From an uncultured Candidatus Saccharibacteria bacterium (GTDB taxonomy: Bacteria > Patescibacteriota > Minisyncoccia > Phycocordibacterales > PALSA-1337): a stretch of DNA of 64,000 nucleotides. Below the pieces are notes generated by a model, which did not search any database, had not been told where the DNA came from, and saw only the letters and a program-made list of their open reading frames with translations. How positions within the stretch are numbered: position 1 is the first letter of the stretch; the number at the start of each line of letters is the position of its first letter. Of this stretch, positions 34,963-52,106 are shown in pieces. The translations under genes and the position numbers were made by a program. The DNA lies in the NCBI GenBank assembly GCA_964467225.1, contig CAYXPQ010000001.1, positions 6,812-70,811 of the forward strand, in the 5' to 3' direction.

Positions 34963-35232
34963 TTATTTTGCCTTAAGGTCTAGCTTCTTAGCGATACTTG
35001 CATGTCGCTTAGGGTGCTTTTTCTTTAGATAGTTCATGTGAGACTGTCTATCAGCAACCATAGCTAGCAAACCTCGTCTTGAGTGATTATCTTTCTTGTG
35101 TTTCTTCAAATGACTAGCTAATTCTTCGATTCTCTTCGTTAATATTGAAATTTGAACCTCTGGAGAACCAGTGTCCTTGTCGTGAATTGCTGATGATTTA
35201 ATGATATTTGTCTTCTGTCGTGTTGTTAACAT
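34963..35232 (-). CDS. rpsO: 30S ribosomal protein S15
   Basis: 89-aa typical S15 sequence. Confidence 0.93.
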   Translation of the reverse strand: MLTTRQKTNIIKSSAIHDKDTGSPEVQISILTKRIEELASHLKKHKKDNHSRRGLLAMVADRQSHMNYLKKKHPKRHASIAKKLDLKAK

Positions 35233-35261
35233 TGCTTGATTATCGTAGCATAAATAACTTT

Positions 35262-35700
35262 AAAGCGCAAGGGGTTGTTGACTAGAAAGAAGAAAACCCC
35301 AGACAATACATCACGTCTGGGGTTATACTGCGACCCACCTTCGTCTTGTGACTTGGTGGCGCCGAGGTCGTTCAGTTTTGGCTAGTGTTCTTGTTTTCGA
35401 AATGCTTCGGCGGGCTGTTCATGGGTGCCTTTCCCTTTTGGATTCACGGAATTGCATTCTTTTTTGGTCTCTCAAGGGATTGCGCTTACCCACACTACGT
35501 GGGGTGCATCTTCTTCACGATGACTCCTTTCTTTGTCGATTTCCCTTCTCTGGCGTGAGGCCGGGGCCGGGTGATCAGGAATTATTTTTTCCGACGCTGA
35601 CACCGACAGGGGGCGGTCCGTTGTTCATGGCTCCTTTTGTTGAGCTTTTAGCTCAGGCGATTATCATGCGTAGGAAGTGATCTACTGTGTTATTCACCTT
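35262..35700 (-). ncRNA. Candidate structured RNA gene in GC-rich island (tmRNA/ssrA-like 3' end); identity unresolved
   Basis: About 50% GC in a ~32% GC context. No credible ORF (the 110-aa plus-strand ORF is Arg/Trp-rich noise). Minus strand reads ...GGCGCCACCA at 35354-35363. An 8-bp hairpin (35296-35323) plus U-tract follows. Adjacent to the tyrosine recombinase gene. Confidence 0.4.
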
Positions 35701-35802
35701 GGTGAGTCACAGTCCATCAAACCTACATCTGCACATGAGTATAGCATATACAGATTTTTTGTCAAGTACTTTAAATTTTACATAAAAGCTATACTTTATA
35801 GC

Positions 35803-36741
35803 ATGTCGCACAATCTCAAAGATTTAAAAACTGATTTCCTACAATATACCGAGATAGAAAAGGGTCGAAGTCTCAATACTGTTCGTAATTATGATCAGTA
35901 TTTAAGCCGTTTTTTAGACTATACGAAGATAAAAGATCCTAAGGATATTACTGATAATAAAGTCCGAGATTTCCGTATTTGGCTCAATAGACAAGAGGCA
36001 AAAAAGGAGAAAGGAATGGCTCCTACAACACTCAAAAAGCGAACTCAAAATTACTATTTGATTGCACTTAGAGCTTTCCTCAAATATCTGGCTAGACAAG
36101 GCATAAATTCCCTCGCACCGGATAGGATTGAGCTCGCAAAGGTTCCAGAAAGGTCGCTGGACTTGATTACTATTGAAGAATTGGAGCGATTATTGAAAGC
36201 TCCTGATACTACAACCCTACGAGGATTGAGAGATAAGGCGATTTTGGAGTTACTTTTCTCTACTGGCCTTCGTATTTCCGAATTATGCTCTCTTCCTCGT
36301 GATATAAATTTAAAATTAGATGAAATGTCGGTCAGAGGTAAAGGAGAAAAAGTCAGAGTTGTATTTATTTCTGATGATGCTAAAACAGCTGTTAAAAATT
36401 ATTTAGACAAGAGAGATGATATGGACGATGCCCTATTTGTTCAAATACTAGGCAAAGGTAATGAAAAACTGGCTCAAAAGAGAGATTCATTAAGAATAAC
36501 TCCTCGTTCGGTAGAGAGAATAATCAAACAATACGCCATAAAATGCGGAATATCAAAAAAAGTTACCCCTCATGTGATAAGACACAGTTTTGCAACTGAT
36601 TTATTGAGAAATGGTGCTGATCTTCGCTCGGTTCAGATGTTGCTAGGTCATGCAAATATCAATACCACCCAGATATATACACATGTTACTGACAGTGAAT
36701 TAAAGAAAATCCATAAGAAATTTCATAGGAAAAGTGAATAA
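35803..36741 (+). CDS. Tyrosine site-specific recombinase, XerC/XerD family
   Basis: C-terminal catalytic RHSFATDLL...LLGHANINTTQIYTHV (R-H-R-Y). Start reset to MSHNLKDLK. Confidence 0.85.
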   Translation: MSHNLKDLKTDFLQYTEIEKGRSLNTVRNYDQYLSRFLDYTKIKDPKDITDNKVRDFRIWLNRQEAKKEKGMAPTTLKKRTQNYYLIALRAFLKYLARQGINSLAPDRIELAKVPERSLDLITIEELERLLKAPDTTTLRGLRDKAILELLFSTGLRISELCSLPRDINLKLDEMSVRGKGEKVRVVFISDDAKTAVKNYLDKRDDMDDALFVQILGKGNEKLAQKRDSLRITPRSVERIIKQYAIKCGISKKVTPHVIRHSFATDLLRNGADLRSVQMLLGHANINTTQIYTHVTDSELKKIHKKFHRKSE

Positions 36742-37557: not shown

Positions 37558-38074
37558 ATTATATTGTCTTTTATAAAAGAAAAGTTATCCACAGATTTTA
37601 TTTGCAATGTCCTTTACATGTCTTTTATGGTTGCTATAATAATGCACAGATAAGTTGAGTTATTAACCAAGGATTAACTTGACAATGTTCTTTCAAAAGT
37701 AAGGGGTAGTATTGTTATCATTTTGAAATTCTTTTCAGAGAGATGGCGACCCTTCTTAGGTTTAGCTGAGGCATTGCATTTTTTCGCATTTTTTTAAGTT
37801 CCTCGTTGGAACACTCATTTGTAGGAAAATTTATGCAACCCCTCCCTATTACTTGGGTTGATGGTCAGTTGTCGCGGATCTTTGATCCCTTCTGGATCAT
37901 GTTGGTCCCTCTGTATAAGCCAAGAATTTCCACAACCGCAGACTTTGTTCGGTTCTCTCATTTTCTAACCTGAGACCCGTCCATTTGGATGCGGTTGATT
38001 TGTATTTAAATATTAATATGGCTCAATAGAGCCATATAATATATGTTTCATGTGAAATAATGACACAATGTTAA

Positions 38075-49046: not shown

Positions 49047-50186
49047 TTATTCGGCAAACTCTTCTTTAGGAGTAGTCGGGTTTGTTGATTTTATATCTAT
49101 TTTCCACCCAGTTAGTTTAGCAGCTAGTCTTACATTTTGACCACCTTTACCAATAGCTAGAGATTGTTGATCTTCAGAAACATGAACTGTAGCTTTCTTT
49201 TCATTTTCTTCTATATCAATCTTCAGTACTTTGGCTGGAGAAAGTGATTCCTCGATAAATTGAGAAAGATTATCATTCCATTGTATAATATCTATCTTTT
49301 CACCTCCCAATTCACTCATTACTGTAGATACTCTAACTCCTCTTTGGCCAACTAAAGAACCAATTGGGTCAATGTGAGAGTCTTTTGAAACTACAGCGAT
49401 CTTTGATCTTGCACCAGCTTCTCTTGCAATTGCCTTTATTTCAACTATTCCTTGAGCAATTTCTGGCGTTTCAACTTCAAAGAGCTTTGAAATGAAATTT
49501 GGATGTGATCTTGAAAGCTTTAATATTATGCCTTTCGGAGATTCTTCTACAGCATATAGATATGCTCTAATTCTTTCTCCCTGTTTGTAATGTTCCCCTG
49601 GAATTTGATCTTCATAGGAAATAATACCCATAGCTCTTCCCATATCAACAAATATTGATCCTCTCTCTATTCTTTGTACTGTTCCAGAGACTATTTCTCC
49701 ATCCTTCTGACCATATTCATTTAATACAGAGACTTTCTCAGCTTCGCGAATCTTCTGTATAATAACTTGTTTTGCTGTTTGTGCTGCAATACGTCCATAG
49801 TTATCCTTTTGTTCAAGAGGGAAGATTATTTCATCATCTACCTTTGCATCCCTCTTAATCTTCTTGGCGTCAGCCAAAAGGATATGATGCTCAGGGTTAA
49901 ATCTTACTCGAATGCTTTCCTCAGCCATATTTTTGATATCTTGTTCATCTTCTTCGTGATCCATAATTACCTTTGTTTCATCTACAACTATTTTAATTTG
50001 ATAAAATTCAACTTTACCTGACTCGTTATCAAAAATAGCTCTAACAATCTGGCCTTTTTTACCGTATTCTTTCTTATAAGCTGTAGCAAGAGCTAATTCT
50101 ATTGCCTCAAGCATTTTATCCTTAGGAATCCCTCTTTCGTTTTCCATTTGTTGGAGAACTGAGTGTATTACTTTTAAATCGAACAT
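49047..50186 (-). CDS. nusA: Transcription termination/antitermination factor NusA
   Basis: NusA N-terminal domain, S1 domain and KH domains. 379 aa. Confidence 0.92.
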   Translation of the reverse strand: MFDLKVIHSVLQQMENERGIPKDKMLEAIELALATAYKKEYGKKGQIVRAIFDNESGKVEFYQIKIVVDETKVIMDHEEDEQDIKNMAEESIRVRFNPEHHILLADAKKIKRDAKVDDEIIFPLEQKDNYGRIAAQTAKQVIIQKIREAEKVSVLNEYGQKDGEIVSGTVQRIERGSIFVDMGRAMGIISYEDQIPGEHYKQGERIRAYLYAVEESPKGIILKLSRSHPNFISKLFEVETPEIAQGIVEIKAIAREAGARSKIAVVSKDSHIDPIGSLVGQRGVRVSTVMSELGGEKIDIIQWNDNLSQFIEESLSPAKVLKIDIEENEKKATVHVSEDQQSLAIGKGGQNVRLAAKLTGWKIDIKSTNPTTPKEEFAE

Positions 50187-50357: not shown

Positions 50358-52106
50358 ATGCACATAGAAGATTCACAACTAGATAAGTTTATTTTAGATT
50401 CTAATCTAATATCCAAATCTGATTTAGACGAAGCTGAGAAGCAAGCTAGGGAAGAGAATAGACGCTTGGGTGATATTCTTGTAAGTAGTGGCAAAATTAC
50501 TGAAGACAATTTGCGAAGGATGCAAGCTTATGTGCTGGGCATACCTTTCGTGGATCTTAAAAATAGGAAGATACCTTTTGAGACCCTATCAATGATTCCT
50601 GAGCCTGTGGCTAGAAATCATAGTATTGTCGCGTTTAAAAAAGATGATGGAATGTTGGAGGTGGCAATGCTTGATGTAGAAGATCTTTCTGCAATTGATT
50701 TTGTAAAAAAGAAGGTAAATTTAAAGATTCTACCTAGACTTACTGATTCTGAATCAATAAAAAACGTAATAATTCAATACCAAAAGAGTCTTAAAGCAGA
50801 ATTCGGTGATATTATACAGAAAGAATCAGAAACACTAAAAACTATAACAGAAGAAGCGGGGGAATCGTTCTCTGAAGCAGACTTAAAAAAGATTGCAGAG
50901 GATTTGCCTGTGGTAAGAATCGTAGATACATTGCTTAAGCATGCAATATTACAGAACGCATCGGATATTCACATTGAGCCAATGGATGATCAATTATTAG
51001 TTAGATATAGAATTGATGGAATGCTTCATGATGCCATGGTTCTTCCTAAGAGTGCAGAGCCATCTATAACTGCTCGTATAAAGGTGCTATCTAATTTGAA
51101 ATTGGACGAGAAGAGGTTGCCTCAAGATGGTCGTTTTAAGATCGATATGAATAATGAGAAAGTTTCTTTCCGTGTTTCTCTACTCCCAACTTATTATGGA
51201 GAGAAGACAGTAATGCGTCTTCTACGAGAAAGCGTATCTGGTTTTACATTGGAATATCTCGGTTTCCATGGAGAGGGACTAGAAAGGATTCATCATGCTA
51301 CTACTCTTACAACTGGTATGATACTTACAACAGGACCTACTGGATCAGGTAAAACGACAACTTTGTATACTATTTTGGATATTCTTAATCAGCCAGATGT
51401 AAATATTTCAACAATTGAAGATCCTATTGAATATCAAATGAAAAGAATAAATCAAACTCAGGTTAAGCCTGAAATTGGTTTTACTTTCTCAGTGGGATTG
51501 AGGACTTTAGTTAGACAAGACCCTGATGTTATTATGGTGGGTGAGATTCGAGATAATGAAACGGCCTCATTGGCGGTTAATGCTGCTTTAACAGGTCACT
51601 TGGTTCTATCAACACTTCACACTAATAGTGCTGCTGGTGCAATTCCTAGATTGATGGATATGAAAATCGAACCATTTTTACTTGTTTCAACAATAGATAT
51701 AATTATTGCACAGAGACTTGTAAGGAAGCTTTCAGAACATAAAGAAAAATATTTCTTAAGCAAGACTGAAATAGCAACATTATCAAAAACAGTTGATCTG
51801 GATAGGGTGTTGCAAGCATTAAAGGATGAGAAGGTGATTAAGAGTGCGGATTCTTGGGAGAAAATTCCTTTCTGGAAGCCTATTGCATCAAAGGACGATG
51901 ATGGTTATAAGGGAAGATTAGGTATACACGAAGTTCTGAAAGTTACACAAAGTATCAAAGATTTGATTATAAAGGGGGCAACTACTACTGAAATTGAAGA
52001 ACAAGCAAAGAAAGAGGGGATGTTAACAATGATTGAAGACGGAATATTTAATGCAGTAAAAGGTATTACAACAATTGAGGAGGTATTAAGAGTTATTTCA
52101 GAATAA
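50358..52106 (+). CDS. pilB: Type IV pilus assembly ATPase PilB/GspE family
   Basis: N-terminal GSPII_E_N domain. Walker A GPTGSGKTTT. Asp box, Walker B and His box present. Lacks the C-terminal tetracysteine. Confidence 0.9.
   Translation: MHIEDSQLDKFILDSNLISKSDLDEAEKQAREENRRLGDILVSSGKITEDNLRRMQAYVLGIPFVDLKNRKIPFETLSMIPEPVARNHSIVAFKKDDGMLEVAMLDVEDLSAIDFVKKKVNLKILPRLTDSESIKNVIIQYQKSLKAEFGDIIQKESETLKTITEEAGESFSEADLKKIAEDLPVVRIVDTLLKHAILQNASDIHIEPMDDQLLVRYRIDGMLHDAMVLPKSAEPSITARIKVLSNLKLDEKRLPQDGRFKIDMNNEKVSFRVSLLPTYYGEKTVMRLLRESVSGFTLEYLGFHGEGLERIHHATTLTTGMILTTGPTGSGKTTTLYTILDILNQPDVNISTIEDPIEYQMKRINQTQVKPEIGFTFSVGLRTLVRQDPDVIMVGEIRDNETASLAVNAALTGHLVLSTLHTNSAAGAIPRLMDMKIEPFLLVSTIDIIIAQRLVRKLSEHKEKYFLSKTEIATLSKTVDLDRVLQALKDEKVIKSADSWEKIPFWKPIASKDDDGYKGRLGIHEVLKVTQSIKDLIIKGATTTEIEEQAKKEGMLTMIEDGIFNAVKGITTIEEVLRVISE

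Follow-up and report, generated by a model that had tools for sequence, protein, structure and literature searches.

The 64,000-nucleotide (nt) stretch of DNA analyzed here, hereafter the window, comes from contig CAYXPQ010000001.1 of an uncultured Candidatus Saccharibacteria bacterium (assembly GCA_964467225.1). The segment between positions 35262 and 35700 attracted attention as a GC-rich island. Its GC content reaches 49.9% against a window mean of 33.1% (standard deviation 3.4% for 439-nt windows, z +4.9), which makes it the top-GC 439-nt stretch of the 64 kb (the runner-up reaches 41.5%) and agrees with the island of about 50% GC described in the original prediction, a reading of the letters made without database searches. 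The same prediction placed the island between rpsO and a Xer-family recombinase gene, and both neighbours were confirmed by Pfam and model matches. The rpsO gene occupies positions 34963-35232 on the minus strand (Pfam Ribosomal_S15, E 1e-28), and a tyrosine recombinase gene (xer) lies on the other flank, at 35803-36741 on the plus strand. The recombinase passes the XerA-type model NF040815 (244.8 versus a cut-off of 220), scores below the integron-integrase models TIGR02249 (127.9 versus 265) and NF011946 (75.8 versus 435), and has thousands of close homologues in Patescibacteria. By these scores, it is a conserved chromosomal XerA-type gene rather than an island integrase.

The best explanation for the island would be an independent accessory unit of about 445 nt, running on the minus strand from roughly 35731 to 35285 (Table 1). 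Coordinates of the unit are read on the minus strand, and its transcription and translation are both deduced from sequence alone. The putative promoter matches the consensus at 11 of 12 positions and includes an extended −10 motif; it is one of two such sites on both strands of the 64 kb, the other being at 37613 (see below). Transcription would start near 35731, ahead of a 5′ region rich in GC and in hairpins. At the opposite end, the GC hairpin originally taken for a terminator was indeed found to have the makings of one, with six GC pairs in an 11-bp stem (35324-35295) followed by UUCUUCUUUC. The rpsO promoter lies beyond this terminator, thus delimiting the unit, and is conserved in relatives whether or not their rpsO-xer gap is occupied. 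As to coding capacity, the statement that the island has no plausible open reading frame (ORF) stands for long ORFs; the minus strand does contain three micro-ORFs led by Shine-Dalgarno (SD)-like motifs. Micro-ORF 3, 16 amino acids (aa) long, provides a second copy in the window of the M-N-S-P-P module with which such frames begin. The mini-ORF lying between the two Pro-Pro frames starts from a GUG codon and overlaps a hairpin, CCCAC-GUAGU-GUGGG (35503-35489). Its counterpart in one relative (L175) reads MKMKPP-stop and its frame is not kept in two others (L086 and L087); translation of this element (35518-35495) is uncertain.

Table 1. Predicted features of the minus-strand unit and of the adjoining rpsO promoter
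Feature	Position	Strand	Description	Basis
Unit promoter	35738-35765	-	−35 TTGACA (35765-35760), 16-nt spacer, extended −10 TGcTATACT (35746-35738)	
Long 5′-proximal hairpin	35670-35726	-	GUAGG..UGAU..ACUGUG..UCAC, loop, GUGA..CACAGU..AUCA..CCUAC	Minimum free energy and centroid folds
Small hairpin	35642-35654	-	GAGCU-AAA-AGCUC, 5′ of the first SD-like motif	Folds
First SD-like motif	35631-35637	-	AAAGGAG, ends 2 nt ahead of the micro-ORF 1 AUG; gap of 4 nt between AAAGG and AUG	
Micro-ORF 1	35575-35628	-	MNNGPPPVGVSVGKNNS, 17 aa, UGA stop	Start fits the family pattern M-N-x-P-P
GC-rich element	35559-35571	-	CCCGGCCCCGGCC, right after the UGA of micro-ORF 1	Sequence comparison
Second SD-like motif and GUG mini-ORF	35495-35530	-	AAAGGAGUC (35530-35522); VKKMHPT-stop (35518-35495)	Sequence
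Third SD-like stretch and micro-ORF 3	35372-35438	-	AAAGGGAAAGGC (35438-35427); MNSPPKHFENKNTSQN, UGA stop (35422-35372)	Direct repeat D1
CCA-containing segment and local hairpin	35335-35363	-	GGCGCCACCA (35363-35354); CCACC..GGUGG (35359-35335), internal to the transcript	Folds
Intrinsic terminator	35285-35324	-	11-bp stem AACCCCAGAC..GUCUGGGGUU (35324-35295), then UUCUUCUUUC	Inverted repeat I2
rpsO promoter	35242-35270	-	TTGCGC, 14-nt gap, extended −10 TGCUACGAU; downstream of the terminator, delimits the unit	

For comparison, 171 loci with a divergent rpsO-xer pair were collected, corresponding to 145 distinct gaps, and three more were added separately; the relatives' genomes are labelled Candidatus Taylorbacteria or Paceibacteria, and single loci are cited by their L numbers. 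Across related loci the gene pair is conserved and the length of the gap is bimodal, with empty gaps of about 50-170 nt and occupied gaps of 200-930 nt. The clade of the window, defined by a Xer identity of at least 74%, comprises 43 complete gaps, 28 occupied and 15 empty. A near-consensus promoter on the rpsO strand is present in 27 of the 28 occupied gaps, nearly always (24) in the same place; a crude search found a terminator-like hairpin in at least 20, and an SD-preceded M..PP ORF was recognized in 21. In more distant lineages the gap either holds ordinary, unrelated genes or is empty.

The interior of the unit is a mosaic. In a locus with 97% Xer identity (L005) the first 139 nt are 98% identical to the window and no similarity is then detectable until the terminator; in another, with 96% Xer identity (L006), the micro-ORF 1 module is common with the window and the 5′ module is different. 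L086 and L087 join an L006-type 5′ module to an L005-type 3′ module. Breakpoints coincide with conserved anchors: the promoter and 5′ end, the terminator, and the SD-AUG region between them. This is what homologous recombination would give. The hypervariability is local, because in the same genomes a neighbouring gap (37558-38074) used as a control stays 78-97% identical (97, 90, 87, 84 and 78% over about 500 nt). Separately, we observed that contigs terminate inside the rpsO-xer gap in L005, L006, L010, L013, L085, L089, L092, L093, L098, L101, L104 and L174, including several from sister samples with an identical Xer protein. These contig ends suggest strain-level heterogeneity that breaks assemblies.

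A tyrosine recombinase diverging from a strong promoter that reads into a module-shuffled region calls to mind an integron-like or Xer-dependent (IMEX, dif-module) cassette array in which the recombinase would shuffle the GC-rich modules, the more so as the NCBI family name of the enzyme is "tyrosine recombinase/integron integrase". We regard this as very unlikely. The enzyme fails both IntI models and passes the XerA-type one; no attC-like or dif-like inverted repeats are found at module borders, the only inverted repeats of the island being those of the terminator and AT-rich pairs of the promoter region; the modules are gene-free and measure about 100 nt; they have no phage or plasmid relatives; and the breakpoints lie in conserved anchors, as expected from homologous recombination.

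The comparison disclosed a small conserved core within this variable setting. When 24 micro-ORF starts (from about 21 gaps) were aligned on the proline pair, the sole conserved columns were AAAGG, 5-10 nt, AUG AAC n(g)n CCn CCn, corresponding to an SD-like motif followed by M-N-[G/S/A/D]-P-P. Positions 1 and 2 of the proline codons are invariant and position 3 varies, the first codon being CCG, CCU or CCC and the second CCC, CCG, CCU or CCA. The codon before Pro-Pro (GGA, AGC, AGU, UCG, GCA, GAU, GAC, GGC, GCU or GCG) shows no common nucleotide and specifies only small residues (Gly, Ser, Ala or Asp), Ser being drawn from both of its codon families (AGC, AGU and UCG). In L097 and L099, the ancestral AUG is changed to AUC or ACG and replaced by an in-frame AUG three codons upstream, preceded by its own AAAGG at the right spacing; L099 also carries a 6-nt in-frame insertion. 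The frame of micro-ORF 1 survives 3-nt insertions and deletions in its homologues of L006, L086 and L087. Since Ser codons come from both families, the third position of the Pro codons wobbles, only small residues are admitted and the start is relocated in frame, the pattern is that of a protein-coding sequence and points to the core being translated. The combination AAGG..ATGA[AC]C..CCNCC was found nowhere else in the window or in the approximately 90 loci scanned.

Beyond the fifth codon the frames continue for 0 to about 40 further codons (46 aa at most). Some are very short, with five to seven codons (MNDPPM, MNKDPPE, MKDPP, MKMKPP). Substitutions between homologous pairs number 55, 42 and 48 at the three codon positions. 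The GC-rich element that follows the stop codon of micro-ORF 1 in the window, CCCGGCCCCGGCC, is inside the ORF in the longer homologues of L008, L016 and L017, where it codes for GPGP. In the window clade SPGPG comes after the UGA in the same frame, which breaks down within a few codons. Read-through or recoding of UGA was considered and rejected, given the loss of frame after SPGPG and the fact that the ORFs of the genome are intact under code 11. As a side observation, the long ORFs of the window end with TAA in 34 cases, TAG in 8 and TGA in 3; both Pro-Pro micro-ORFs end with UGA (35575-35577 and 35372-35374), as do roughly half to two thirds of the family, a bias that may come in part from the GC-rich context.

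No match was obtained in Pfam and NCBIfam scans of ten of the peptides, nor in an exact look-up of seven of them in a collection of 15 billion proteins, and a literature search on small proteins encoded between the genes of Patescibacteria returned no paper. A pattern scan of IMG/VR (AAAGGNNCC..ATGAACNNNCCNCC) gave 22 matches, about 16 of which belong to one MN[LIM]PP family. In the two that were inspected (L177 and L180) the match is to an internal Met near the C-terminus of a phage protein of about 940 aa (..GT(H/R)MNLPP(T/I)D..), and by sequence the MN[LIM]PP peptide also occurs in about 14 further matches, among them L179, L181-L185, L187, L189, L192 and L195-L198. These viral matches look unrelated to the micro-ORF RNA.

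The SD-like motifs are unusual in their genomic setting. Any SD-like motif was found in only 3 of the 48 long genes of the window, and in many genes a −10-like box precedes the AUG by 7-9 nt, for example xer (TATACT, 7 nt, ATG) and rpsO (TACGAT, 9 nt, ATG). Because of this spacing, many genes are probably leaderless. Over 33 loci, AAAGG occurs 55 times on the RNA strand versus 8 times on the opposite strand, with a density of 4.4 per kb versus a genome background of 1.6 per kb; the RNA of the window has four copies (P about 0.01 versus shuffles). Such figures could also be accommodated by an untranslated structured small RNA (sRNA), a sponge in the style of CsrB/RsmZ whose AAAGG repeats bind a protein or the anti-SD sequence of the 30S subunit and in which AUG..CCNCC is an RNA motif. 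Each RNA has two to four strand-specific copies (the 55 versus 8 count), in A-rich linkers or loops such as GCC-AGAAA-GGC; some of these have no start codon after them, and genes of the genome hardly use SD sites. In Csr/Rsm sRNAs the sequence outside the motifs is free to vary, and the remaining sequence varies freely here. CsrB and RsmZ likewise combine a conserved promoter and terminator with a fast-evolving body and repeated SD-like purine motifs in loops and linkers. We nevertheless consider a sponge unlikely. The switch between AGY and UCG serine codons, the wobble at the third position of the prolines and the small residue before them form a protein-level pattern; the SD-AUG spacing is preserved when the start shifts in L097 and L099; and inspection of the aligned starts showed no consistent pairing partner covarying with CCNCC. 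Furthermore, the motif is AAAGG rather than the ANGGA of CsrA sites. In comparison with CsrB and RsmZ the copies are few (two to four per RNA, often without GGA), and the first one precedes a start codon and codon-patterned sequence.

Individual hairpins recur in the predicted folds, and the long 5′-proximal one (35670-35726) is retained in L005, L085 and L175, with changes confined to the apical loop or apical stem. Compensatory changes were seen between L019 and L021 (CUUGCA/UGCAAG versus CUUGUA/UACAAG) and in an SD-holding hairpin (GUACC/GGUGC in L008 versus GUGCC/GGCGC in L016). Pairing of the 5′ end with a downstream partner beats shuffled sequences in 8 of 26 lineages, where about one would be expected. 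Alignment of 13 5′ untranslated regions with MAFFT followed by RNAalifold gave no consensus pairs, the 3′ partners being too divergent in sequence for alignment; comparison of structures is informative only within close pairs or triplets. Alternative terminator and antiterminator pairings, drawn by eye for the window, L029 and L175, are weak (4-6 bp). A further arrangement was observed in L008 (gap positions approximately 316-470 on the rpsO strand), where a module made of an SD-like motif, a 7-codon ORF (MLTAKGV, MLITTGV) and a hairpin is tandemly duplicated, with a counterpart in L016 (approximately 300-345; MLMTTGV). The hairpin, GGUGUUUGAG.AA.CACC in L008, holds the UGA stop in its loop. 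This is a second type of mini-ORF module in micro-ORF RNAs.

These data bear on the possibility that the island is an insert without function, now in decay. The gap between the divergent rpsO and xer promoters would then be a hot spot where the gain and decay of small lineage-specific genes is tolerated, the window carrying the remnants. The unrelated genes or empty gaps of distant lineages, the frequent losses and the truncated look of both window micro-ORFs next to their longer homologues could be read in this way. We find it distinctly unlikely in view of the persistence of the promoter, the AAAGG-AUG-AAC-x-Pro-Pro core and the terminator amid unalignable surroundings, the compensatory changes in hairpins and the maintenance of a GC content about 17 points over that of the genome. 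The original suggestion of a decayed foreign fragment gained no support either: a blastn search (word size 11) found nothing that matched the island among 50,697 phage records and 72,556 plasmid records, and promoter, start motif and terminator are conserved.

The original prediction had primarily viewed the island as a structured RNA gene, possibly a transfer-messenger RNA (tmRNA, ssrA) of standard, divergent or permuted type. The first part survives, in that the island appears to be a discrete minus-strand transcription unit, seemingly other than a protein gene, with a promoter, a terminator and GC-rich hairpins; tmRNA identity was contradicted by ARAGORN, by Rfam and by the relatives. The grounds for it had been GGCGCCACCA, the terminator after it and the adjoining recombinase gene, and the general likeness to a tmRNA locus is real: a GC-rich, non-coding-looking island of a few hundred nt by a tyrosine recombinase, with an internal ..GCCACCA, a terminator and a short frame. 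ARAGORN, which that prediction had asked for, detected only four tRNAs in the whole window (39.6-41.0 kb) and no tmRNA, and Rfam 15 searched at the gathering score over the same DNA returned only the four tRNAs. With permissive filters and E values up to 10, the 35100-35900 region yielded four chance-level matches only (to a CRISPR repeat, a plant microRNA, a small nucleolar RNA and a long non-coding RNA), all far under the cut-offs, the best having 18.6 bits against a gathering score of 45. None of the matches at this threshold was to tmRNA (RF00023), alpha-, beta- or cyano-tmRNA or tRNA, and no covariance model for RNase P RNA, 6S, SRP or other Rfam families matched the region near its gathering score.

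The motifs themselves do not assemble into a tmRNA. GGCGCCACCA is present on the minus strand as described. Its CCA (35356-35354) is not an RNA 3′ end: about 65 nt of the unit still follow it, a local hairpin includes it in its 5′ arm, the terminator hairpin comes about 30 nt further on, and the CCA has no counterpart in the closest relatives (L005, L085, L086, L087 and L175). The motif likened to a tmRNA 5′ element, GGAUUCAC, was found as "ggattcac" at 35440-35447, on the plus strand and hence on the strand opposite to GGCGCCACCA. Neither a T-loop or T-arm (GGUUCGAAUCC-like) upstream of GGCGCCACCA nor an acceptor-stem partner was found, so that the unit shows no tRNA-like domain, and it also lacks a resume-codon/tag architecture and pseudoknots. 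Its short frames start with an SD motif and AUG or GUG, whereas tmRNA tags have neither SD nor AUG, and their C-termini (..GKNNS, ..TSQN, ..MHPT) do not resemble an ..ALAA-like degron. The island is incompatible with a housekeeping RNA because it is absent from 15 of the 43 clade gaps and cannot be aligned at 97% Xer identity; it is hypervariable and dispensable among close relatives. As already noted, the adjoining recombinase is a conserved XerA-type enzyme rather than an island integrase. We thus rejected a tmRNA or other housekeeping RNA, and leave scarcely any chance to a standard, permuted or degenerate tmRNA or to RNase P RNA, 6S or SRP.

Two other candidates were tried and set aside. 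A plus-strand transcript or protein was rejected since no good promoter is found on that strand and the 110-aa plus-strand ORF has no Pfam match and is broken in relatives (the frame is interrupted in L006 and L086). Compared to shuffled sequences, the plus strand gives z −3.4 and the minus strand z −1.5; the simplest reason for the better plus-strand value would be that the U/G-rich complement can form additional G-U pairs. An rpsO leader or S15 autoregulation element was rejected because the rpsO promoter is located after the terminator and the element is absent from many genomes.

We conclude that the island is a genuine and unusual feature that lacks annotation, and that it represents a hypervariable family of micro-ORF RNAs in Taylorbacteria. 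As to its role, we propose, with a probability of about one half, that it works as a cis-acting, translation-sensing RNA, structured and accessory, in which selection acts on translation through a Pro-Pro pause early in the frame. In this scheme, the minus-strand RNA would be transcribed from the strong sigma-70 promoter, and ribosomes would initiate at the SD-led AUGs and translate M-N-(G/S/A/D)-P-P. The first five codons alone appear to be under selection, the remainder of the ORF (0 to about 40 codons) having no codon-position bias. Because only M-N-x-P-P is selected, the selected event would be the act of translating the early Pro-Pro pair rather than the peptide. Consecutive prolines are known to pause ribosomes in a manner dependent on EF-P and sequence context (PMC4176338, PMC8129111), proline pauses in leader ORFs can control termination, and EF-P affects leader-peptide attenuation (PMC5021804). 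The early Pro-Pro pair could thus be an EF-P-dependent pause site on a structured RNA, with ribosome loading or pausing setting the folding of the RNA and hence its stability, its activity or terminator read-through. Candidate outputs would be the RNA's own stability or activity, or read-through towards rpsO. A more ambitious and rather doubtful version would be a translation-status sensor specific to the Candidate Phyla Radiation (CPR), in which loading (reporting anti-SD availability) and pausing (reporting EF-P or prolyl-tRNA status) would remodel the RNA and tune its stability or read-through into rpsO, the body being reshuffled between anchors.

Several findings weigh against a translation-sensing RNA. 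The minus-strand fold as a whole is not significantly stabler than shuffled sequences (z −1.5), and the distance between micro-ORF and terminator is not fixed, with 0 to about 300 nt separating stop codon and terminator. No target of regulation was identified, the rpsO promoter being downstream of the terminator in all genomes. Seven of the 28 occupied gaps have no recognizable Pro-Pro ORF. Given the near-exclusive use of AAC for Asn and the dominance of GC-rich Pro codons although the genome is AT-rich, some constraint at the nucleotide level is not separable from constraint on the peptide. Lastly, weak motifs are found beyond Pro-Pro in the longer homologues of some lineages (KN.NF..GPGP; a C-terminal IA), and these favour a peptide product.

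Accordingly, one may ask whether the unit is simply one or more micropeptide genes, encoding products of 16-46 aa with an MNxPP head and a fast-evolving tail, of the bacteriocin, pheromone or host-interaction type, with truncated copies in the window. A strong promoter, an SD motif and a 5′ hairpin resembling a stabilizer would suit such a gene. Lineages share features past Pro-Pro (CxC, KN and AF.G.VPG in L097 and L099; NF..GPGP in L008, L016 and L017; the C-terminal IA of L005, L085 and L175; NSGIFAG in L020 and L024), the equal substitution at the three codon positions fits diversifying selection, and many assemblies break in the gap, as they would at strain-variable loci. Yet several lineages have ORFs of 5-7 codons only; neither a signal or leader peptide nor a nearby gene for transport, modification or immunity was found; the peptides have no Pfam or NCBIfam match and do not occur in the 15-billion-protein collection; a third of the genomes have lost the unit; and the ORF of the window clade ends at a UGA before the GPGP element, the downstream frame not being kept. 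On balance, a micropeptide gene seems to us a tentative and somewhat improbable alternative. The comC, agrD and blp peptide loci offer a parallel in their conserved N-terminus, hypervariable tail, strain polymorphism and mosaic alleles; unlike them, the unit conserves a head of just five residues, lacks motifs for export or processing as well as a neighbouring cognate transporter, kinase or immunity gene, and includes alleles of 5-7 codons.

Returning to a translation-sensing RNA, the best comparison for the way the unit might work is a polyproline leader ORF or a dual-function sRNA. Leader-peptide attenuators, such as mgtP of the Salmonella mgtCBR leader and the his and trp leaders, resemble it in having a very short ORF, conservation of the informative codons (here Pro-Pro), a structured RNA and an intrinsic terminator. 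A short ORF with conserved key codons is indeed what was found, M-N-x-P-P being present in 21 of the 28 occupied gaps. In contrast to attenuators, the unit has no promoter-less downstream gene, the distance from ORF to terminator is variable, and it is missing from a third of related genomes. Classing the unit as an attenuator is precluded by the separate promoter of rpsO and by the failure to find an obligatory terminator/antiterminator pair. Dual-function sRNAs and small-ORF mRNAs (SgrS/SgrT, RNAIII/delta-haemolysin, SR1/SR1P) are likewise stand-alone RNAs running from promoter to terminator, with stable hairpins and a micro-ORF, and a promoter and a terminator that bound a short RNA are recognizable in the DNA of the unit. 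The unit differs from them by its two or three micro-ORFs, its five conserved codons, the rapid mosaic turnover of its interior and the lack of a known base-pairing target.

Other observations were made in the course of the analysis. Another candidate RNA without annotation, about 350 nt long, lies at 37613-38010 on the plus strand (also given as 37648-38010), within the 37558-38074 gap between exonuclease and CCA-adding enzyme genes. Its promoter, TTTACA-16-TGcTATAAT, is the other top-scoring promoter of the window. The sequence is 78-97% conserved in relatives, a 46-aa ORF that it contains is broken in them, and it has no Rfam match. The consensus fold comprises 93 pairs, with 96% of cells paired compared to at most 48% when slid, and nine pairs show compensatory change; none of 500 shuffles reached the observed score. 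The many G-U pairs place the candidate on the plus strand. As a structured RNA gene it is a better candidate than the rpsO-xer island. A perfect DnaA-box-like TTATCCACA occurs at 37586-37594, just upstream of the 37613 promoter, and boxes like it (TTATCCACA or ATATCCACA) are found ahead of a second promoter within the rpsO-xer gap of L020, L024 and L022. The cumulative GC skew has its minimum at about 50.0-50.4 kb, a possible replication origin region where mostly minus-strand genes (the last at 49047-50186) give way to plus-strand ones (from 50358-52106 on). Finally, the rpsO-xer gaps of L020 (approximately 485-605 on the rpsO strand) and L024 (approximately 75-200) contain another small gene with its own promoter, encoding a Gly-rich peptide of about 40 aa. 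The two peptides, MKTQVLRNTRAIGAVHGADAGTGRFGLEAVQGNSGIFAG and MKTNSPDVRYTRALGLVRGADSTGCFGYAVQATNSGIFAG, have a conserved C-terminus (..NSGIFAG) and match no known family.

Under our proposal, the rpsO-xer locus would carry two warnings for annotation: a GC-rich island in an AT-rich CPR genome need not be a housekeeping RNA, and the rpsO-xer hot spot breaks many metagenome assemblies. Should the unit prove to be just a rapidly evolving peptide gene of accessory nature, or an insert in decay, its interest would be local. If our proposal is correct, the unit would represent an unannotated micro-ORF RNA family for the CPR, a group in which, to our knowledge, almost no regulatory RNAs or small proteins are known experimentally, and the retention of five codons while the rest turns over would provide a handle on Pro-Pro/EF-P pausing and on the use of SD sequences in an SD-poor genome.

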